From a virus: a DNA stretch of 64,000 bases. The stretch is taken from positions 18,857 to 82,856 of the IMG/VR virus record IMGVR_UViG_3300031227_000028; one strand, 5' to 3'. The notes beneath the pieces were generated by a model. That model did no database searches. It saw nothing but the letters and a program-made list of their open reading frames with translations, and was not told the origin of the DNA. Shown one piece after another: positions 5,471-34,220 of the stretch (positions are counted from its first letter, which is position 1; every line of letters starts with the position of its first letter). A program made the position numbers and the translations under genes.

Positions 5471-5561
5471 TATATACTCTATCACCTAAAGGTATATAAA
5501 GAAAACCAGCGTAATTATAATTATAATTAGTGATTAATAATTAATGATTGGAGATAAAAAA
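5471..5561 (+). promoter_or_regulatory. Repeated promoter/leader cassette: TATA + (ATAATT)n + TGATTGGAGAT SD
   Basis: Homologous cassettes at ~22826, ~25447 and ~31021. Confidence 0.7.
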
Positions 5562-5855
5562 ATGGAATTCGATAAAAACCTAAATTGCACAACAACATTA
5601 AAAGAATGTAACAGAGAAAAATTAGATTCAATTGTGTATGTAAAAGAAAGCATTTCAAAAGTTAAAAGTGATTTAAAACTTAATATTGCAGATTTAAAAG
5701 CTCAAATAGTAGAATTAAATAAAATAGCAGATGAAGATATTATTGATTTAAAAGTAGATATTGAAAAATTAAAAATACCTATGACTGAAGATGAATATAA
5801 CAAAACAATAAAAGAACATATAATAATAATAAAAGAAATGCAGATGAGGTACTAA
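5562..5855 (+). CDS. Hypothetical coiled-coil protein
   Basis: Start moved to the ATG after the TTGGAGAT SD. Confidence 0.65.
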   Translation: MEFDKNLNCTTTLKECNREKLDSIVYVKESISKVKSDLKLNIADLKAQIVELNKIADEDIIDLKVDIEKLKIPMTEDEYNKTIKEHIIIIKEMQMRY

Positions 5856-15099: not shown

Positions 15100-16026
15100 A
15101 TGAATATTGACGATTTAAAAAACATTGCATGGATGATTAAATATAGACCAAAAACATTAGATAATGTTGTTGGAAAAGAAGCTAAACTATTGAAAAAATA
15201 TGTTGATAGTAATAATTTACAACATTTTTTACTATCTTCTAGAACACCAGGTACAGGAAAAACAACTTGTGCAAAAGCTATTATTAATGATACTGGAGCA
15301 GATTACATTGAAATAAATAGTAGTGATGAAAGAGGAATAGATGTTATTAGAGATAAAATTAAATTATTTGTTAGTACGATGAGTTCTAAACCTGGTTTAA
15401 AAAAAATTGTATTTTTAGATGAAATGGATTCTATGACTAAAACAGCTCAAGATGCACTTCGTAATATGATGGAGAAATTTATGACTAATGCTATCTTTAT
15501 TCTAACTTGTAATTATATTGAAAAGGTTATTGAACCAATCAAAAATCGTTGTGAAGTTATAGTTTTTGATAGTCCTGATAAAGCAGAGATTAGAAAATAT
15601 TTATTGAATATCATAGATGCTGAAAGCGTTAAATATACTAGTGATGGATTAAATAAATTAATTGATATGAATTATCCAAGTATAAGAGAATCTGTTAATA
15701 CTTTACAAAAGTTTAAAACTATGGATATTGAATTGAATCCTATTAATTTAAAAAAAAATAATGAGAAATTTGATATTTTATGGACAGATATTAAAAGTGG
15801 TAAGGTTTTAAATGTTAGAAAAGAAATCTGTGAAAATAATTATAACCCTGAATTATTATTAAAACATTTTTGGGCAAAAACATATACAGATGAAAAATTA
15901 ACTATAAAACAAAAAATTAAATTAGTATCTGTATTAGCAGATGTTGATTATAAAATGAGTATTGGTGCATCAAAAAATATTCAAATAGATAATATGTTAT
16001 TTAAAATAGTAGGTGCTTTAATATAA
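15100..16026 (+). CDS. rfcS: Replication factor C small subunit (clamp loader ATPase)
   Basis: WxxKYRP, PGTGKTT, INSSDERGID, DEMD, CNY, NRC. Confidence 0.93.
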   Translation: MNIDDLKNIAWMIKYRPKTLDNVVGKEAKLLKKYVDSNNLQHFLLSSRTPGTGKTTCAKAIINDTGADYIEINSSDERGIDVIRDKIKLFVSTMSSKPGLKKIVFLDEMDSMTKTAQDALRNMMEKFMTNAIFILTCNYIEKVIEPIKNRCEVIVFDSPDKAEIRKYLLNIIDAESVKYTSDGLNKLIDMNYPSIRESVNTLQKFKTMDIELNPINLKKNNEKFDILWTDIKSGKVLNVRKEICENNYNPELLLKHFWAKTYTDEKLTIKQKIKLVSVLADVDYKMSIGASKNIQIDNMLFKIVGALI

Positions 16027-16031
16027 TTAAA

Positions 16032-16526
16032 ATGGATTTATTCAAAACTTTAAATAAAATATATACTGCAAGAGATACTGATTGGGTTAAAGATATTGAT
16101 AGTAATGTGTCAAATGTACCTATTAATATTATTTTATCATATAATATTAAACTTAGTAATGTAGTAGCTTTTTTAGATAAATATACATTTAGATTAGATG
16201 TTAAGAATTTTTGTATATTAGCTTGGGCAATTATACACCCTAAATATAATTCAATGCCTTTTAGTAAAAAAATAAAAGCTAATGAAAAAGAAAATAATAA
16301 ATATCAATTTTTATTAGATAAAATACAAACTAGAATGGAAATATCAAACAATGATTGGGTTGATTCTAAGAATTATTATATTGAAGACATTGAAAGAAGA
16401 ATAACAGATTATTTAACTTTATTTGGTTGTACTAAAAAAGAATGGAAATCAATTGGAATTGATTTTGAAGAATCAAAAAAAATTAATATTGTAGATATAA
16501 AAAAAGGATTAGATAAATGGTTTTAA
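16032..16526 (+). CDS. Probable second clamp-loader subunit (T4 gp62-like position)
   Basis: Directly follows RFC; C-terminal PIP-like KKGLDKWF. Confidence 0.5.
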   Translation: MDLFKTLNKIYTARDTDWVKDIDSNVSNVPINIILSYNIKLSNVVAFLDKYTFRLDVKNFCILAWAIIHPKYNSMPFSKKIKANEKENNKYQFLLDKIQTRMEISNNDWVDSKNYYIEDIERRITDYLTLFGCTKKEWKSIGIDFEESKKINIVDIKKGLDKWF

Positions 16527-16530
16527 TTAA

Positions 16531-16627
16531 CAAAACATTTATATATTATATATGTAATAAATAATTATATTGATAGGAGACTGTTACTCCTAATCAAATA
16601 GAACAAAAAAAATACGGAGATATAAAA
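16531..16627 (+). promoter_or_regulatory. TATA promoter and hairpin leader of yhhQ-TGT-TGT-GNAT-polB operon
   Basis: AAAACATTTATATATTA; hairpin 16570-16597; GGAG SD 16616-16619. Confidence 0.6.
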
Positions 16628-17278
16628 ATGATAAATGAAATAATAATAACTTACAAATTTTTTGGTAAGAGAGGCTTATTTGTATTCACAGGTATAGCAA
16701 TAATCTTAGCAAATATACAAGTTTTGAAAACAGTACAATTATTTGGAATGGTTGCAACATTAGGTAATGTTATATATGGATGTTCTTTTTTGATAACAGA
16801 TATATTATCTGAAAATCATGGGAAGAAAGATGCTAAGACAGCTGTTATAATAGGATTGTCTGCAGCAATAATATCAACTGTTATAATGTATATATGTACT
16901 TTATTCGTTCCACATTCAAGTGATTTCGCTAGTGGGGCTTTATCAACAATTTTTAGTGTTATGCCAAGAATAATGATTGCATCTTTAATAGCATATACAA
17001 TATCTAACTTTAATGATGTACATATATTCCATAAAATAAAAGCTAAAACAGGAGATAAACATCTTTGGATTAGAAATATTGGTTCAACATTTTCAAGTCA
17101 ATTATTAGATACAGTAATTTTTAGTGTAATAGCTTTCTGGGGAATGTTTAGTAGAGATATATTTATTCAAATAATGTTAACTACATATATTATGAAAATT
17201 GTAACAGCAGCTTTAGATACACCTTTCCTTTATCTTGCTAAATGGATGAAGAAAAATGGTCATGTGAGTGAGGAATAA
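16628..17278 (+). CDS. yhhQ: Queuosine-precursor (preQ0/preQ1) transporter, YhhQ/VUT family
   Basis: ANIQVLK, TLGNVIY, FLITDILSE.HG, R..IASL.AY, LWIRNIGST..SQLLDT, DTPFLY; multiple TM helices. Confidence 0.92.
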   Translation: MINEIIITYKFFGKRGLFVFTGIAIILANIQVLKTVQLFGMVATLGNVIYGCSFLITDILSENHGKKDAKTAVIIGLSAAIISTVIMYICTLFVPHSSDFASGALSTIFSVMPRIMIASLIAYTISNFNDVHIFHKIKAKTGDKHLWIRNIGSTFSSQLLDTVIFSVIAFWGMFSRDIFIQIMLTTYIMKIVTAALDTPFLYLAKWMKKNGHVSEE

Positions 17279-17279
17279 A

Positions 17280-18431
17280 ATGGATAGAAATTTTTTTGAA
17301 GAGAATAAATTAGTATATTTGCCAGCAACCCTTCCATCTGCTGAGTTATGTATAAATAATGATGAACCAACTGCAAAACAACCTCACTTTTGGAATAAAG
17401 AAACATCAATATGGTACTATCCAAATTTATTAATTAGTGCATATCATGCAGATAAAATTGAAGATATTAGAAAATTAATGGGAATAGATAAAGATGTAAA
17501 AATTCTTTATGATAGTGGAGGTTACCAAATGGTAACCTTAGGAGGAAATATTAATCCTAAAGATTTAATAGAATTACAATTAAAAAATTCTAATGCTGGC
17601 CTTATATTAGATAATCCTCCTTTTAAAATAGGATTAGGAAATTCACAGTTTGGTGAATCAATGAATGAAGATGAAATATCAATATGTCTTAATAAAACAA
17701 AAGAGAATGCTAAAATTGCAATGGCTAATAATATAGGACCAAATAAAATTAGATTATATGGTGTAGTGCAAGGAGAATCATGGGAACAAATTAATAGATG
17801 GTATGATTCAATGCATGAATTAGAAGAAGAATATGGAAAATTTGATGCCTGGGCAATGTCACCAAAACCATCAACAATAGCATTATATGGAATTTTATTA
17901 TTAGAAAGAAAAATTAAAACCCCAATACATTTTTTACAGGCTACAAGTAGAGAAGCAATATCCACTACCGCATATATTAGAAAATTATCAAAAAATTTGA
18001 TAACTATTGATAGTTCAAATTTTTCATCTGGTACAAGATATGGAAGAATAATAAATTATGAGCATTTAGGTATATTTGATATAGGCGAAGGAAAAAGAGA
18101 AAAAAATAAAAAAGGTTGGTTTTGTGATTGTCCTATTTGTAGAGAAAGAAAAATTGATATTGAAAATTTATCAACAACAGATTTAAAATATATAAATATT
18201 CATAATTTATATCAAATAGTTAAAATTGTAAAAGTTGCAGATTGGTTAGTTGATTATAGTGAAGTAATGTTTTTTAATTGGATTAAGAAATTTAAATCAT
18301 CATGCACTGGTGCAATTAAAATGTTACAATTTTATGATAAATATGGATTAGAAAGAACTAAATTAAATTACTCAGATATATTCACAGCAAATGATAATAT
18401 AGTAAATCAAAAAGGTTTATTTGATTTTTAA
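17280..18431 (+). CDS. tRNA-guanine transglycosylase/DpdA superfamily protein, paralogue 1
   Basis: DSGGYQ, ILD, GVVQG, TIDSS, CDCPIC...HN; C-terminal QKGLFDF; start moved to the ATG after GAGGA. Confidence 0.85.
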   Translation: MDRNFFEENKLVYLPATLPSAELCINNDEPTAKQPHFWNKETSIWYYPNLLISAYHADKIEDIRKLMGIDKDVKILYDSGGYQMVTLGGNINPKDLIELQLKNSNAGLILDNPPFKIGLGNSQFGESMNEDEISICLNKTKENAKIAMANNIGPNKIRLYGVVQGESWEQINRWYDSMHELEEEYGKFDAWAMSPKPSTIALYGILLLERKIKTPIHFLQATSREAISTTAYIRKLSKNLITIDSSNFSSGTRYGRIINYEHLGIFDIGEGKREKNKKGWFCDCPICRERKIDIENLSTTDLKYINIHNLYQIVKIVKVADWLVDYSEVMFFNWIKKFKSSCTGAIKMLQFYDKYGLERTKLNYSDIFTANDNIVNQKGLFDF

Positions 18432-18456
18432 ATTATATAGATTAGGAGAAAATAAA

Positions 18457-19602
18457 ATGAAAAGAACATTTTTTGAAAATAATAAATTAGTTTTTATCCC
18501 TGCAATTTTACCTAATAAAGATCTTTTTGGTAAAGAAACAGATAAATATTCTTTTTTTTCTGATAAGTCTTTATATTTTTATCCTAATGTTTTAATTAGT
18601 GCATATCACGGGAAACATTTAGATATTAGGAAAGAATTAGAATGTAATGATAATGTTATGATTTTAGGTGATTCAGGTGGATTTCAAGCAGTAACTTTAG
18701 GTGGCGATATAAACGCTAAAGAAGTTATTAAATGGCAAATGAATAATTGTAATGCTGGTTTAATACTTGATAAGCCTCCATATAAATTTGGTGGAACAGC
18801 GCAATTTGCAGGTACACCATCTAAAGAATTTTTTAATGAATGTTTAGAAAAAACAAAACAAAATGCTTTAATAGCTCTTGAACATAATAAAGGCGAAAAG
18901 AAAATTAGATTATATGGAGTAATTCAAGGCGAAACATGGGAACAAATGAAACAATGGTATGAAACAATATCATCAATTCAAACAAATGAGAAAAAATTTG
19001 ATGCATGGGCATTATCACCAAAACCATCAAATGATGTTTTTAAAATTGCAATGCTTGGTATTTTATGTTTAGAAAAAAAAATAGATACACCATTGCATAT
19101 ACTTCAAATTTCAAATCGTCCTGGAATAATAGTTGCTGCTTTAATAAGATTTTGTATTCAACAAACAGTAACTATAGATAGTTCTTCTCCTTCAAAAGCA
19201 TCACGTTTTGGGGAAATATATAATCCATATACATTTTTAGCAGAAATTAAAACCGGGCAAAGAAGACCAAAAGAAAAAATGAATGGATGGATGTGTGATT
19301 GCCCAATATGTCAAGCAACTAATATATCTTTTAATGATGTTGAAAATAAAAATTATGAAAATATTTTGGATTTACATAATTTATATCAAATAGTGCGTTT
19401 TGTAAAATATATGGATTGGGTAGTACAAGATAAAGAAATATTAATGAAAATGGTAAAAACTGTTTCAATTAATGCTTATAATGCAATTGAAATGATTTAT
19501 TATTATAAAGAATATGGATTAGAAAGAACTAAATTAAAATATCCAAATGTATTTGAATCAAATAATGATGCATCAAATCAAAAAGGATTATTTGAATTTT
19601 AA
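18457..19602 (+). CDS. tRNA-guanine transglycosylase/DpdA superfamily protein, paralogue 2
   Basis: DSGGFQ, ILD, GVIQG, TIDSS, CDCPIC...HN; C-terminal QKGLFEF; AGGAG SD. Confidence 0.85.
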   Translation: MKRTFFENNKLVFIPAILPNKDLFGKETDKYSFFSDKSLYFYPNVLISAYHGKHLDIRKELECNDNVMILGDSGGFQAVTLGGDINAKEVIKWQMNNCNAGLILDKPPYKFGGTAQFAGTPSKEFFNECLEKTKQNALIALEHNKGEKKIRLYGVIQGETWEQMKQWYETISSIQTNEKKFDAWALSPKPSNDVFKIAMLGILCLEKKIDTPLHILQISNRPGIIVAALIRFCIQQTVTIDSSSPSKASRFGEIYNPYTFLAEIKTGQRRPKEKMNGWMCDCPICQATNISFNDVENKNYENILDLHNLYQIVRFVKYMDWVVQDKEILMKMVKTVSINAYNAIEMIYYYKEYGLERTKLKYPNVFESNNDASNQKGLFEF

Positions 19603-26893: not shown

Positions 26894-27354
26894 AAACTAT
26901 AGAAGAATTACAAAAACGTTTAGAAGGTGCCTTTAAACATAGTAATTTTTTTGATTCTTTACATGAAGTTAATGAAGTAAAAAAAGTTATTGGTGCAAAG
27001 GAATTAACTAAATTTTTAAAAAAGAAAATTAATATTATAAAAAAAGAAAAAAGAGAATATAATTTAAAAGTCAAAAATATTAGAATTAAATATGGTTCAT
27101 TTAACGAATATATATATGAAGAAGCTTTACAATATATAACTCATAGTTATAAAGTAGGAGAAATTGTTGTTGTTGAATATTGTGATTCATATAAAGCCCT
27201 TAAAATACATAAAATAACAAAAAAAGGTTATGATTTATGGGATGGAAATAAATTGGCCACAATAATGAAAATACCAGAATCTAGTATATTAGGTTATGGA
27301 CATAATTTAAATAAAATAATTAAAGAAAATGACAAAAAGAAGGTCAAAAATTAA
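26890..27354 (+). CDS. Hypothetical protein
   Basis: ATGA overlap; 154 aa. Confidence 0.6.
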   Translation: MKTIEELQKRLEGAFKHSNFFDSLHEVNEVKKVIGAKELTKFLKKKINIIKKEKREYNLKVKNIRIKYGSFNEYIYEEALQYITHSYKVGEIVVVEYCDSYKALKIHKITKKGYDLWDGNKLATIMKIPESSILGYGHNLNKIIKENDKKKVKN

Positions 27355-27448
27355 TTCAACTTTTTTTCTTGATATAATTGGTGAAGATAAAGTTGATAAA
27401 AAGAAATATAAAAAAACAGATAAATATAAACCCAACGATTATTTTATG

Positions 27449-27485
27449 TAAATAATATTATTTAATACAAACATTTATATATTAG
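27449..27485 (+). promoter_or_regulatory. tRNA operon A promoter (16-bp palindrome + TATA)
   Basis: TAAATAATATTATTTAATACAAACATTTATATATTAG, identical to 29030-29066. Confidence 0.85.
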
Positions 27486-27498
27486 TTGTTATATTATT

Positions 27499-27567
27499 AT
27501 GAATATGTATAAGACAACAAGTTTAACCAATATGTGTATGAGTAATTTATTACTTGCGTCATTTTAG
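27499..27567 (+). CDS. Putative leader peptide A, MNMYKTTSLTNMCMSNLLLASF
   Basis: Starts near the predicted TSS; 19/22 residues are M/N/L/S/A/T/C, the amino acids of operon A tRNAs. Confidence 0.65.
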   Translation: MNMYKTTSLTNMCMSNLLLASF

Positions 27568-27618
27568 TTATAACTATGTTGTTAAGCTTATTCTTTTTAT
27601 TTATCTGTTTAACAACAG
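27509..27618 (+). promoter_or_regulatory. Attenuator-like alternative hairpins, operon A
   Basis: ATAAG/CTTAT, ACAACA/TGTTGT, GAGTAA/TTACTT stem followed by U-tract; rival pairing TGTTGTTAA(27577)/TTAACAACA(27609). Confidence 0.6.
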
Positions 27619-27640
27619 GTTGAAATATATTAAAATTTAT

Positions 27641-27716
27641 AGAAGTGTAGGCTAGTCAGGTCAAAGTCACGCGGCTCATGACCGTGAGAACGTTGGTTCA
27701 AATCCGACCACTTCTA
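27641..27716 (+). tRNA. tRNA-Met(CAT), A1:U72, initiator-like
   Basis: Cloverleaf; CGCGG-CT CAT GA-CCGTG; no encoded CCA. Confidence 0.9.
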
Positions 27717-27736
27717 TTTTGTTTAAATGTACATTT

Positions 27737-27821
27737 AAATAAACGTGATAAAAATAATTACCTACCGTTTAGAAACGAAAGGAGGAGTGATTCCCTCGTT
27801 GCAAGGAATTATTGTTTATTT
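27737..27821 (+). ncRNA. Candidate multi-stem RNA between tRNA-Met and tRNA-Asn
   Basis: AAATAAAC/GTTTATTT, AATAATT/AATTATT, CCT/AGG enclosing CGTTT/AAACG and GAGG/CCTC hairpins. Confidence 0.35.
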
Positions 27822-27826
27822 TTATT

Positions 27827-27897
27827 GCCGATGTAGTATAATGGTATTATACCTGGCTGTTGACCAGATGATAGGGGTTCAATTCCCTTCGTCGGCG
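27827..27897 (+). tRNA. tRNA-Asn(GTT)
   Basis: GCCGATG/CGTCGGC; CT GTT GA loop. Confidence 0.92.
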
Positions 27898-27903
27898 TTT
27901 TAT

Positions 27904-28024
27904 ACGTGTGTGGCTGATTGGTAAAAGCGCTGGACTTAGAATGAAAATTCGTCTACAAGATGTTTTTACATAAGTTATCCAGTTTCCTAAGTGGATGTTG
28001 TGTGTTCAATTCATACCACACGTA
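27904..28024 (+). tRNA. tRNA-Leu(TAG) with 36-nt BHB intron (27941-27976)
   Basis: ACGTGTG/CACACGT; long variable arm; intron at 37/38 with CTTA/TAAG helix and GAA/TTA bulges. Confidence 0.9.
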
Positions 28025-28031
28025 TTTTTAT

Positions 28032-28115
28032 GCTACGATGGCTCAATATGGCACAGCAACAGATTGCTAATCTGTGAGACAATAACTCTTTTCGGTTCAA
28101 ATCCGAATCGTAGCG
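28032..28115 (+). tRNA. tRNA-Ser(GCT)
   Basis: GCTACGA/TCGTAGC; long variable arm; G73. Confidence 0.92.
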
Positions 28116-28116
28116 T

Positions 28117-28204
28117 TGAAGGAGAAGCTAAAAATGGTCTTATTGGAAGCAAGAGGCAATGCTTGACGAAGAGAAACTTATAACTGTAGCGGGTTATACA
28201 TTCA
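28117..28204 (+). ncRNA. Candidate structured RNA between the two tRNA-Ser genes
   Basis: TGAA/TTCA closing; TCTT/AAGA + AAGCA/TGCTT arm; TATAAC/GTTATA arm. Confidence 0.3.
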
Positions 28205-28213
28205 TTATTTTTT

Positions 28214-28294
28214 GCTAACAAAGCGAATGGTAAGCGTGCCGTCTTGAAAACGGTTGGTCCTTGCGGCTCGTCAGTTCGAATCTGGCTGTTAGCG
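28214..28294 (+). tRNA. tRNA-Ser(TGA)
   Basis: GCTAACA/TGTTAGC; CT TGA AA; long variable arm; A at position 8. Confidence 0.88.
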
Positions 28295-28323
28295 TTATTA
28301 AAATAAAAAAAATATAAATTATT

Positions 28324-28397
28324 GGGCGAATAGTTAAATCTGGTATAACGTCCCGCTTGCAACGGGGAGGCTTCGGGTTCAAATCCCGATTTGTCCA
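28324..28397 (+). tRNA. tRNA-Ala(TGC)
   Basis: G3:U70 identity pair; CT TGC AA. Confidence 0.93.
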
Positions 28398-28406
28398 TAT
28401 ATTAAA

Positions 28407-28607
28407 ATGAGTTATGATAAAAATCATACAAAAGACGATTGTGATAAATGTCTTGAAAGGGTTGGAAAAGAAAATTTAACACCTATTAAGTTTTTATATC
28501 TTGATAGGAATGATTTAATGCATCCTGATTATTATCATAACGCAACTAAAGCACAAAAAGATTACAAATTATATTATGTTTGTAAAAATTGTTTAAAAAA
28601 TTATTAA
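28407..28607 (+). CDS. Small Zn-binding protein inside tRNA operon A
   Basis: CDKC...CKNC; exactly fills the Ala-Thr spacer. Confidence 0.65.
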   Translation: MSYDKNHTKDDCDKCLERVGKENLTPIKFLYLDRNDLMHPDYYHNATKAQKDYKLYYVCKNCLKNY

Positions 28608-28608
28608 T

Positions 28609-28682
28609 GCACGTGTGGCACAGTGGTCTACTGCGTCTGCCTTGTAAGCAGAATTACCCCAGTTCAAATCTGGGTACGTGCT
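28609..28682 (+). tRNA. tRNA-Thr(TGT)
   Basis: GCACGTG/TACGTGC; CT TGT AA. Confidence 0.93.
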
Positions 28683-28688
28683 TTTTAT

Positions 28689-28760
28689 GCATCATTGGGC
28701 AAGTGGTAAGTCGTCTGTCTGCAAAACAGAAGAACCCCGGTTCAATTCCGGGATGATGCT
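28689..28760 (+). tRNA. tRNA-Cys(GCA)
   Basis: GCATCAT/ATGATGC; U73. Confidence 0.93.
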
Positions 28761-28761
28761 T

Positions 28762-29046
28762 ATGGTAAAATATAAAAAAAAATATGGGCATGAATATCCA
28801 ACATTAACAGTTCCAATGAAATCACTTCAAGAAGAAAATTTATTTATTAATCCTTATTGGAATGAATGGAATACTCAAAAAGATAGTTTAAGAGTTATAT
28901 GTGATAATAAAAAAATAGTTAAACAAAATAAAAATAGAATACATAAATTTTCAGTTTGGGATATTAGAGAAAAAGGAATACAAGAAAAAAATAAAAAAAA
29001 ATTAATTATAAGAAAGAAAAGAAAATTATTAAATAATATTATTTAA
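28762..29046 (+). CDS. Basic hypothetical protein (94 aa) ending operon A
   Basis: ATG 2 nt after tRNA-Cys; the track's upstream extension overlaps tRNAs. Confidence 0.6.
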   Translation: MVKYKKKYGHEYPTLTVPMKSLQEENLFINPYWNEWNTQKDSLRVICDNKKIVKQNKNRIHKFSVWDIREKGIQEKNKKKLIIRKKRKLLNNII

Positions 29047-29066
29047 TACAAACATTTATATATTAG
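29030..29066 (+). promoter_or_regulatory. tRNA operon B promoter (16-bp palindrome + TATA)
   Basis: 37/37 identical to 27449-27485. Confidence 0.85.
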
Positions 29067-29106
29067 ATATGGTTTTATATAATTATAATAAATAATCTTA
29101 ATATTA

Positions 29107-29304
29107 ATTTATTAAGAAATATTAAATAACTAGATAATTATAGGTGTTATCCCAATCATATTAAAATGAACATACAAGAATGGAGACAGGACGGGGAAAG
29201 AGGCTTTGACATAGTGTTTAAGCCTATCTATCGTTAGTCCTTCCATGGTTCATATCAATTTCTAAATAAATAAAAAAGAACATTGGCCATGTGCCATGGA
29301 ATTC
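29107..29304 (+). promoter_or_regulatory. Attenuator-like alternative hairpins, operon B
   Basis: ATGAAC/GTTCAT, ATGGA/TCCAT, AGGAC/GTCCT, AGGCTT/AAGCCT; rival pairing TTCCATGG(29241)/CCATGGAA(29294). Confidence 0.6.
29166..29237 (+). CDS. Putative leader peptide B, MNIQEWRQDGERGFDIVFKPIYR
   Basis: AAAATG context; residues 3-23 all belong to the operon B tRNA set. Confidence 0.65.
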   Translation: MNIQEWRQDGERGFDIVFKPIYR

Positions 29305-29802: not shown

Positions 29803-29912
29803 GCACCCATAGTCTAAACTGGAAGGGCTCTTGGCTTCGATACAATTGTATGGCTAGTAAGACGCTTTTTTGAAGATACCAAGGTATCCGGGTTCAAATC
29901 CCGGTGGGTGCT
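29803..29912 (+). tRNA. tRNA-Arg(TCG) with 37-nt BHB-like intron (29841-29877)
   Basis: GCACCCA/TGGGTGC; intron at 37/38 with CTTC/GAAG helix and GAT/ATA bulges. Confidence 0.88.
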
Positions 29913-32858: not shown

Positions 32859-34220
32859 ATGAGAGAAAAGATAAAAATTCCAGATAATGTAACAAATATT
32901 ATGTCTCACCTTATAGCTCATGGTTATGATGCATATATTATTGGTGGGGCAATAAGAGATTACTTTCTTGGAATAATTCCTCACGATTGGGATTTATTTA
33001 CAAATTGTCCTGACTTAGTTAATGAGTTTCCAGAAGGAAATGTAATTGGTGGAGAAGAAAGACAAGCAAAGATTTTAACTGTGATAGTGGACGGAATAGA
33101 AGTATCACAATATCGAGCAAATGGTGAACGAACAGAAGTAGGAAATGATTTGGAAACTCATTTATCTACTTGTGATTATAATATCAATGCAATGGCATGT
33201 GATATAAATGGAAACATCATAGATTTACATGGTGGAATATTTGATTTAAAACATTGGACATTTGAATTTGTTGGTGATGGAAACCAAAGAATAAAAGAAG
33301 ACCCTCTACGAATATTAAGAGGTATAAGACTTATTCTGAAGAACCGATTACATCCAAGCCTGGAAACAGAAACAATTTTAGAAGAGAATGGTATTAAGTT
33401 ATATGAGTTACCAAAAGAAAGAATCCGAGAAGAATTTCTTAAACTTTTAAAATATGAAAAATGTTTTGATATATTAAAAGAATTTGAATTGTTAAAATAT
33501 ATCATTCCAGATATTGAAAAGTCATATAACATGAACGGTGGCGATTATCATGATGAAACTGTTTTTGAACACATGAATTATTCATTTAAAGAAGCTTGTA
33601 AGATAACTGATAATGTATTTTTTAGATTAGCTGCAGGACTTCATGATTTTGGTAAGATTTCTGCTATATCAAGAACAGTATTAATTGACCCTAGAACTAT
33701 GAGAGCTATAGAAGATTCAAAGACACATTTCTATGAGCATGAAAGAATTGGTGCAGAAAAAATTGAAGAATGGATGAGAGAATATAAATTTGCTGAAAAG
33801 GAAATTAAATATGTTGTTACTTTAGTGCGAACTCATATGTGGGCTTGGACTGAAACAATTTCAAAACGGTCTTATATCAAACATTTCAAGAAATTTGAAG
33901 ATGCAGATATTGATATTATGGATTTTGTTACTATGACTTATTGCGACAATCAAGGTAATATGAAAAACTCTAGAATTAAATTTGCTGATTGGGTAAGAGA
34001 TAGTCCAATTCATAAAAAATATTATGAGTTAAAACATACTAATGAACCATTTTCAGTTAAAGATTTAGCAGTTGGCGGTAAAGATTTAATTCAATTAGGA
34101 TTTAAACCTGGACCAGAAATGGGAAAACTTTTAAAAAAACTTTTTGAAAAAGTAATGATATGTGAAATTAAAAATGATAAACGTGAATTAATTACATTTT
34201 TAAAAGAATTTAAGGAATGA
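32859..34220 (+). CDS. cca: Class II tRNA nucleotidyltransferase (CCA-adding) with HD domain
   Basis: GGAIRD...DWD, D.NINAMA, EDPLRILR, ERI, LHDFGK, GGKDL...G..PG. Confidence 0.88.
   Translation: MREKIKIPDNVTNIMSHLIAHGYDAYIIGGAIRDYFLGIIPHDWDLFTNCPDLVNEFPEGNVIGGEERQAKILTVIVDGIEVSQYRANGERTEVGNDLETHLSTCDYNINAMACDINGNIIDLHGGIFDLKHWTFEFVGDGNQRIKEDPLRILRGIRLILKNRLHPSLETETILEENGIKLYELPKERIREEFLKLLKYEKCFDILKEFELLKYIIPDIEKSYNMNGGDYHDETVFEHMNYSFKEACKITDNVFFRLAAGLHDFGKISAISRTVLIDPRTMRAIEDSKTHFYEHERIGAEKIEEWMREYKFAEKEIKYVVTLVRTHMWAWTETISKRSYIKHFKKFEDADIDIMDFVTMTYCDNQGNMKNSRIKFADWVRDSPIHKKYYELKHTNEPFSVKDLAVGGKDLIQLGFKPGPEMGKLLKKLFEKVMICEIKNDKRELITFLKEFKE

Follow-up and report, generated by a model that had tools for sequence, protein, structure and literature searches.

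A codon-matched leader open reading frame and two alternative helices precede a tRNA operon in a salt-lake virus

Two tRNA operons in the genome of a tailed virus each follow a promoter copy and a very small open reading frame (ORF), and we analyzed the first of these leaders, leader A, for its coding content, its folding, and its possible role in expression of the tRNAs behind it. The window, by which we mean the whole stretch of DNA analyzed, comprises 64,000 nucleotides (positions 18,857 to 82,856) of virus record IMGVR_UViG_3300031227_000028 and is part of an 82,856-bp genome that has direct terminal repeats and 26% G+C, encodes a tape-measure protein and a tail-tube protein, and occurs almost exclusively in salt-lake metagenomes. 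Unless stated otherwise, positions are those of the window and features lie on its plus strand. The gene upstream of leader A ends at 27354 and is followed by its own T7 run (27361–27367) and then by the first promoter copy. This copy lies in a 49-nt block (27449–27497) that consists of a 16-bp perfect palindrome, TAAATAATATTATTTA (27449–27464, assigned to neither strand), directly followed by an archaeal-type promoter core (27469–27481) in which a transcription factor B recognition element (BRE)-like AAACA precedes the TATA box TTTATATA (27474–27481); the block is repeated at 29030–29078 with 90% identity. Behind the first copy come leader A and tRNAs Met, Asn, Leu, Ser, Ser, Ala, Thr, and Cys (operon A), and behind the second come leader B and 14 further tRNAs for 13 amino acids (operon B). 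The first gene of operon A, a tRNA-Met with a CAU anticodon and an A1:U72 pair, occupies 27641–27716.

The leader-A ORF, MNMYKTTSLTNMCMSNLLLASF, lies between the TATA box and tRNA-Met at 27499–27567 and has 22 codons, or 20 if counted from the ATG at 27505, before its TAG stop codon (27565–27567). Nineteen of its 22 residues are among the seven operon-A amino acids, which places it first in a set of 451 small ORFs comprising all ATG-started ORFs of 15–40 codons in the six frames of the whole genome. The leader-B ORF, MNIQEWRQDGERGFDIVFKPIYR (29166–29237), sits behind the second promoter copy and before operon B; only 2 of its 23 residues are operon-A amino acids, the lowest fraction in the same set, and the other 21 are drawn from the 13 operon-B amino acids. 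When the bases of each ORF were shuffled, none of 20,000 shuffles did as well as the leader-A ORF (p < 5e-5), and the corresponding value for the leader-B ORF was p = 2e-4; the other two frames of the leader ORFs were unremarkable and showed no bias in the shuffle test. We also divided the twenty amino acids 7/13 in all 77,520 possible ways, and the real operon split was the only one that fit both peptides so well. At the level of codons, the leader-A ORF covers all eight operon-A tRNAs and the leader-B ORF covers 13 of the 14 operon-B tRNAs, with both Ser and both Ile isoacceptors sampled. Within the leader-A ORF, the seven amino acids are interspersed, at about one to four of each, without runs of control codons; the longest run of a single residue is LLL, two of whose three codons are TTA. 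A companion claim to the original prediction, that the leader peptide matches the downstream tRNAs, is thus borne out by the rank among small ORFs, the shuffle nulls, and the partition test. Because its amino-acid set matches the downstream tRNAs, the leader-A ORF is very unlikely to be accidental; it is almost certainly meaningful, and it is the strongest evidence for a sensing leader at this locus.

The minimum-energy fold of 27499–27605 is one long imperfect hairpin of 36 pairs (hairpin 1; 27501–27593; −21.1 kcal/mol), which adjoins UUUUUAUUU. Its 5′ arm (27501–27545) is inside the ORF and its 3′ arm is 27550–27593, so that the ORF accounts for the whole of the 5′ arm and the loop and extends into the start of the 3′ arm; the core helix pairs segment S1 (27513–27527) with segment S2 (27567–27583). 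The original prediction had the ORF forming the 5′ arm of a long hairpin, with ACAACA paired to TGTTGT and ATAAG to CTTAT. The hairpin and the first pairing stand, with ACAACA at 27514–27519 and TGTTGT at 27577–27582, as do the positions of TCTTTTTATTT (27592–27602) and TTAACAACA (27609–27617), but the basal register is different: GAAUA (27501–27505) pairs with UAUUC (27589–27593). This basal pairing brings the last G–C pair next to the T5 run at 27594–27598, and the hairpin therefore abuts the U-tract directly, as had been proposed. The U-tract, TTTTTATTT (U5AU3; 27594–27602), is a candidate site of partial termination. Hairpin 1 is more stable than expected by chance (z = −2.83), with 2 of 200 and 11 of 1000 shuffled sequences and 2% of genomic 99-nt windows being as stable.

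When the ORF was masked, as the original prediction suggested checking, the fold switched from hairpin 1 to a second helix, in which 27571–27575 and 27577–27587 of the 3′ arm pair with a downstream segment, S3 (27607–27622). This alternative helix has 16 bp and one bulge (−13.4 kcal/mol), more than the 9–11 bp originally counted, and it places the U-tract in a 19-nt loop, in agreement with the claim that the 3′ arm can re-pair downstream and loop out the U-tract. Masking a 30-nt footprint inside the ORF likewise switched the fold to the alternative helix. The S3 core, AACAACAGGTT (27612–27622), is a direct repeat of the S1 core, GACAACAAGTT (27513–27523). Of 1000 shuffled versions of the downstream segment, 992 gave a weaker helix than the alternative helix, as did 1983 of 2000 decoy segments from the genome. 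In the unmasked fold, hairpin 1 prevails and 27598–27627 makes a small hairpin of its own. The structural observation is thus real and above chance.

These results bear on the simplest explanation of the locus, which is that the ORF is spurious and the structure either serves as an ordinary terminator or insulator for the genes before it or is an AT-rich hairpin that arose by chance. AT-rich DNA folds easily, as the 2% of equally stable genomic windows attest, T5 runs are common, and the leader has neither an Rfam match nor a homologous leader in the collections searched. Against this, the upstream gene already has its own T7 run before the promoter copy, the hairpin sits 3′ of a promoter, two independent folds each reach about the 1% level, and three separate statistical nulls on the ORFs speak against chance. 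We consider this explanation quite improbable.

The palindrome TAAATAATATTATTTA is found directly 5′ of the promoter here, before leader B (29030–29045), and before the portal gene, and from its sequence it looks like an operator for a dimeric regulator. The BRE and TATA box, as aACA-TTTATATA-TTAg, occur in ~20 copies in the genome and are the only block common to the non-paralogous copies. Counting 30–31 nt from the first T of the TATA box predicts a transcription start, calculated rather than mapped, at 27504–27506. The predicted +1 near 27505 coincides with the A of the second ATG of the leader-A ORF, and T27504/A27505 is a pyrimidine–purine step; with +1 at this ATG, the leader-A mRNA would be leaderless. 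The proposal that the ORF starts near the predicted transcription start is consistent with this geometry. We found no TATA box at promoter distance upstream of tRNA-Met and no separate promoter between the U-tract and tRNA-Met, indicating that tRNA-Met relies on transcription that reads through leader A. A sigma-70 reading of the sequence at 27609–27636 (TTAACA-16-TAAAAT) was ruled out, as the start would fall inside tRNA-Met.

On five lines of evidence, the host of this virus is most likely archaeal. The first is the repeated BRE/TATA promoter element described above. The clamp-loader subunit is nearest to archaeal RFC small subunits (E = 5e-50, compared to 3e-27 for T4 gp44), the sliding clamp matches PCNAs, Haloferax PCNA among them, and the best isolate matches of the portal protein are the haloarchaeal tailed viruses VOLN27B, HF1, and HF2. 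The genes for tRNA-Leu (27904–28024) and tRNA-Arg (29803–29912) are 121 and 110 nt long, which implies that each carries a few tens of extra bases at the anticodon loop; these inserts are too short for self-splicing and are read as short tRNA introns. In addition, the sole tRNA-Met of the virus carries the A1:U72 pair. The single bacterial-looking item in the genome evidence is a class II CCA-adding enzyme with an HD domain (32859–34220). This enzyme belongs to a viral family whose identity to cellular homologues does not exceed 31%, all such homologues being bacterial, and a search of genomes from 185,579 prokaryote species found no homologue above 31% identity. The family includes several hundred metagenomic proteins at 42–50% identity, several of them on contigs of 80–180 kb, and the protein itself is identical on three contigs; it looks like a virus-specific clade. 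Because the viral family is so distant from its cellular homologues, all of them bacterial, the enzyme is uninformative about host lineage.

A bacterial host would allow leader A to be a bacterial-style intrinsic-terminator attenuator exactly like the trp and his leaders, and the cellular relatives of the CCA-adding enzyme, together with the possibility of reading the repeated promoter as TTTATA-17-TATAAT, point in that direction. That sigma-70 reading was ruled out, however, because no conserved −10 element was found across the non-paralogous promoter copies, and the element is missing in leader A. The archaeal-type RFC, the match to Haloferax PCNA, the portal protein nearest to those of haloarchaeal tailed viruses, the A1:U72 pair, and the 110- to 121-nt tRNA genes with inserts too short to self-splice all argue against a bacterial host, and the AU-rich stem missed by a terminator scan and the position of S3 on the 3′ side of the U-tract argue against a bacterial-style device. 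We therefore regard this alternative as very unlikely.

Independent support for a translation-sensing role comes from two further codon-matched leaders in a cultured haloarchaeal virus, the Halogranum virus HGTV-1 (NC_021328; 48621–48803 and 49104–49225, minus strand). In HGTV-1 leader a, a TATA box is followed ~29 nt on by the ORF MTSRCSIQSSQISWSQISTF and then by tRNAs Gln-Trp-Ser-Ile-Ser-Gln-Ile and, further on, Cys; in leader b, the ORF MKSKTTTTGTRL precedes tRNAs Thr, Thr, Thr, and Lys. Each of these ORFs ranks first among 403 small ORFs for its own cognate amino-acid set, and no cognate enrichment was found in the longer coding sequences that precede HGTV-1 tRNAs. When we applied the same TATA-distance count to HGTV-1, tRNA genes and a leader ORF fell 6–7 nt past the predicted start. 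The start of the leader-a ORF base-pairs with the 5′ arm of a hairpin (GTGGAG/CTCCAC) directly ahead of T5. The leader-b start codon is part of an 11-bp hairpin, and the 3′ arm of this hairpin has an alternative downstream partner, as in leader A. The HGTV-1 leaders and leader A are alike in having a tiny ORF that spells the following tRNAs and is set in alternative helices, and leader a further resembles leader A in its upstream TATA box and in an ORF that runs through the hairpin and T5. They differ in having no sequence similarity to leader A, and in HGTV-1 leader a it is the S2:S3 hairpin that stands at the U-run, with the ORF start competing. A 2026 paper on HGTV-1 calls its tRNAs "of unknown function" and does not mention the leaders (PMC13532342), and we found no published account of codon-matched leaders before viral tRNA genes in the literature.

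We tentatively favor, at somewhat less than an even chance, a reading in which leader A senses translation and so adjusts the amount of transcription that passes from the promoter into the tRNA operon. Transcription would start from the archaeal BRE/TATA promoter at ~27505, and the RNA would open directly with an ORF of 20–22 codons written in the amino acids of the downstream tRNAs (Met, Asn, Leu, Ser twice, Ala, Thr, and Cys). With no ribosome present, the ORF would pair with 27550–27593. The resulting hairpin, directly adjoining U5AU3, would hide the 5′ AUG, and some of the polymerases would terminate at this point. If a ribosome is moving along the ORF or stalled there, the 5′ arm would be tied up and polymerase would carry on through tRNA-Met and the genes behind it. 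The freed 3′ arm would then be captured by S3 (27607–27622), which would hold the open form without itself making the termination decision. In this scheme, hairpin 1 together with U5 would represent the off state, with the S2:S3 helix as a lock formed after the decision; overall, the more slowly these codons are decoded, the more of these same tRNAs would be made. The switch mechanism itself is only partly supported, and its individual steps are inferred, namely the start site, translation of the ORF, stopping of polymerase at the U-tract, the influence of the hairpin on an archaeal enzyme, and the sense in which the output responds.

Several observations weigh against this reading. S3 lies 3′ of the U-tract and would not yet be transcribed when polymerase decides, so the second helix cannot be a classical antiterminator; the original prediction, which cast it as antiterminator-like, fails on this point. 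The proposal that a stalled ribosome blocks the first fold is in line with the effect of masking the ORF, but a ribosome at the stop codon (27565–27567) also blocks the hairpin by covering the top of the 3′ arm, and the design therefore seems to separate translated from untranslated RNA better than stalled from finished ribosomes. Termination in archaea, moreover, is hairpin-independent: archaeal RNA polymerase stops in vitro at T5–T6 with or without an upstream hairpin, T5 being the minimal termination signal for the Pyrococcus enzyme (PMC2253867). In Methanococcus, efficient termination wants at least two U4 tracts plus aCPSF1 (PMC8716108), and leader A has one such tract; its stop site consists of a single U5 followed by two U3 runs (27594–27609), and a terminator scan makes no call at the long, AU-rich hairpin 1. 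Runs of T5 or longer occur ~3 times per kb on this strand and 2.8 times per kb on the sense strand inside genes, a frequency within genes that base composition predicts, and several T5 runs follow tRNAs inside the operons. Because T5 is common in genes and between tRNAs, it must often be read through, and any stop in leader A is partial at best; T5 as a strong terminator was ruled out, as it is not avoided within genes. For comparison, Methanococcus maripaludis terminators with one run of U4 or longer have a median efficiency of ~43% (PMC8716108). The codon match is also imperfect, in that TTA occurs three times in ORF A and AGA twice in ORF B and no viral tRNA reads either, tRNAs Leu(UAA) and Arg(UCU) being absent from the virus. 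The leaderless geometry is found in none of the long genes of the virus, for which GGAG-type ribosome-binding sites are typical, and leader B has neither a Shine–Dalgarno sequence 5′ of its ORF nor a U-tract 3′ of it. Two further points against come from related viruses and from strain variation. In viruses related through the CCA-adding enzyme, which carry 1–5 tRNA genes, no codon-matched leaders were found upstream, and in a variant contig described below the alternative helix drops from −13.4 to −8.9 kcal/mol through changes in its outer part.

Searches for homologues of the locus gave the following results. A blastn search against phage records produced no match, and searches of viral contigs by way of the upstream 154-aa protein, the 122-aa protein encoded within the array, or the CCA-adding enzyme locus produced no relatives. 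A scan of viral contigs with a promoter 17-mer returned chance matches and one distant virus, in which cgaaACATTTATATA repeats resemble the BRE/TATA repeat and which lacks a tRNA array; a metagenome scan with a 20-mer from tRNA-Met returned only unrelated tRNA genes. The CCA-adding enzyme profile identified eight viral loci at 35–55% identity, and of five such records scanned whole, four had 1–5 tRNA genes and one had none. Rfam has nothing besides tRNAs at or near either leader. None of the public sequencing runs in which the sequence was listed is an RNA run. DNA contigs from four salt-lake runs mostly carried identical sequence, apart from one 127-nt variant contig (27539–27665) with six differences, all 3′ of the ORF stop codon. 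With one of these, T27588A, the basal stem adjoining the U-tract becomes an uninterrupted run of seven pairs, a point in favor of the translation-sensing reading; the others weaken the outer parts of both helices and leave the 9-bp core TGTTGTTAA/TTAACAACA unchanged. Because the depth of this contig is low and it covers only one arm, on the 3′ side, the variant evidence is thin. One further contig, from a salt-lake run, joins 27467 to 29051 and omits 1,583 bases, namely leader A and operon A; the junction may reflect a recombination deletion between the promoter repeats or a repeat assembly artefact, and its shorter side has only 26 bases.

The downstream position of S3 invites another interpretation, in which the ORF is again the sensor but the output is not termination. 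Here the toggle between S1:S2 and S2:S3 would control processing or stability of the pre-tRNA, through RNase P access, shielding of the 5′ end against exonucleases, or presentation of the U-tract RNA to the cleavage factor aCPSF1 once polymerase has passed. A position 3′ of the U-tract only makes sense for a step that follows transcription of the U-tract, and aCPSF1 recognizes the U-tract as RNA and aids termination at U-tracts (PMC8716108). Leader B has a codon-matched ORF without a U-tract, HGTV-1 leader b has the S1:S2/S2:S3 layout without one, and the hairpin nearest the tRNA ends 18 nt (leader A) or 17 nt (leader B) before the first tRNA, all of which would suit a processing step. Such processing sites are hypothetical, the U-tract stays single-stranded in its 19-nt loop, and the exact abutment of hairpin 1 and T5 would have to be a coincidence; we judge this interpretation rather unlikely, although it is the most serious of the alternatives. 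A further proposal is that S3 acts after polymerase passage by wrapping the U-tract RNA in a loop and withholding it from aCPSF1/FttA, which would make leader A the first archaeal ribosome-mediated attenuator, with a leaderless ORF that senses the supply of the downstream tRNAs. If so, antitermination would work by masking terminator RNA and not by pre-empting a hairpin. We hold this proposal to be improbable as stated.

The extent of hairpin 1 suggests a different possibility again. The hairpin spans almost exactly the interval from the predicted start (27505) to the U-tract (27593/27594), as expected if leader A were a closed mini-transcript or small RNA of ~95 nt whose 5′-most bases pair with those immediately preceding its U-tract end. 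The end-to-end helix would then serve stability, or the product would be a peptide mRNA or regulatory RNA, the tRNAs would arise from incidental read-through, and the codon match would be non-regulatory. This explanation leaves unaccounted for the identity of the peptide's amino-acid set with the operon's tRNA set, the complementary set of leader B, and the S3 helix, and it has to reckon with a tRNA-Met that has no promoter of its own. It seems to us to have little likelihood, and the non-regulatory readings together (a closed small RNA, a chance hairpin or plain terminator, and a bacterial-type attenuator) carry about a quarter of our overall confidence.

The translation-sensing reading that we favor has clear parallels in bacteria. 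Like the thrL and ilvL leaders (and those of trpL and hisL), leader A has a short ORF enriched in codons that report on the operon's product, the ORF overlaps one strand of mutually exclusive helices, several amino acids would be sensed at once, and a hairpin and U-run precede the structural genes. Unlike them, leader A has tRNAs and not biosynthetic enzymes as targets, a host that is most likely archaeal, no runs of control codons, and a probably leaderless mRNA; the ORF itself forms the putative terminator hairpin (1:2 and not 3:4), and the alternative partner is 3′ of the U-run. Of the features that define ribosome-mediated attenuators, leader A thus has the leader ORF and the codon enrichment and lacks an antiterminator placed before the terminator. 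In the attenuator of the E. coli pyrBI operon, a closely coupled ribosome blocks the terminator hairpin, and UTP is sensed through polymerase pausing. The pyrBI leader and, in the reading favored here, leader A are alike in that the leader ORF runs into the terminator hairpin and whether a ribosome is present or close by, not an antiterminator helix, decides the outcome; leader A would differ in sensing tRNA supply, and it differs in being non-bacterial and in an ORF that stops 27 nt before the U-tract.

Leaderless short ORFs that encode polycysteine attenuate operons in mycobacteria, with experimental support (bioRxiv 10.1101/834739). As proposed for leader A, a short ORF at the 5′ end of the transcript senses decoding on behalf of the genes downstream, whereas the mycobacterial ORFs are bacterial, consist of runs of a single amino acid, and precede genes of Cys metabolism; leader A has no comparable series of consecutive identical codons. 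Archaeal oligo-U terminators that act with aCPSF1/FttA, among which those with a single U-tract stop polymerase only partially, share with leader A a U5 in an AT-rich context, an accepted form of archaeal stop signal (PMC8716108, PMC7515710, PMC2253867), but the known examples are at gene ends, need no hairpin, and have not been reported to be gated by a leader ORF. In terms of known classes, leader A is best read as a variant of leader-peptide attenuation that has tRNA targets, belongs to an archaeal virus, probably has a leaderless start, and lacks the classical antiterminator.

These leaders bear on the reasons for which viruses carry tRNA genes and on the control of such genes. An ORF composed of the amino acids that the tRNAs behind it carry implies that the virus gauges decoding capacity and adjusts its own supply of tRNAs. 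A translation-sensing stop/go switch of this kind has not been described for tRNA genes or in archaea, and if the switch acts on transcription, it would be the first case of leader-peptide attenuation in Archaea, whose termination rules differ from those of bacteria. Because HGTV-1 shows the same signature and has a cultured host, the idea is directly testable.

Some minor observations concern the tRNA array and the promoter repeats. The spacer between tRNA-Met and tRNA-Asn (27717–27825; 109 nt) contains a palindrome (TTTAAATGTACATTTAAA) and a small G+C hairpin with a perfect Shine–Dalgarno-like GGAGGAGTGAT that has no ORF behind it, and no further mini-ORFs were found in the internal spacers of the array. 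Additional promoter copies are located at window positions 129 and 25450 and at 15514–18505 of the genome (minus strand). These copies belong to a family of small paralogous genes, with the N-termini MKKMDEK, MEKMDEK, MEKMNK, and MNEMDEE, each of which follows a near-identical block of ~60 nt that comprises the promoter and the 5′ untranslated region, TTTATATATTAGTACTGGTTTATTATAATTATAATTA...GGAG. Finally, a third promoter with the TAAATAATATTATTTA palindrome, outside the window at genome positions ~5520–5660 (minus strand), drives the 673-aa portal gene, whose 5′ untranslated region of ~95 nt contains a C-rich stretch (GCACCCTCCCCCTTTGC) and a T8 run and may harbor another regulated stop.

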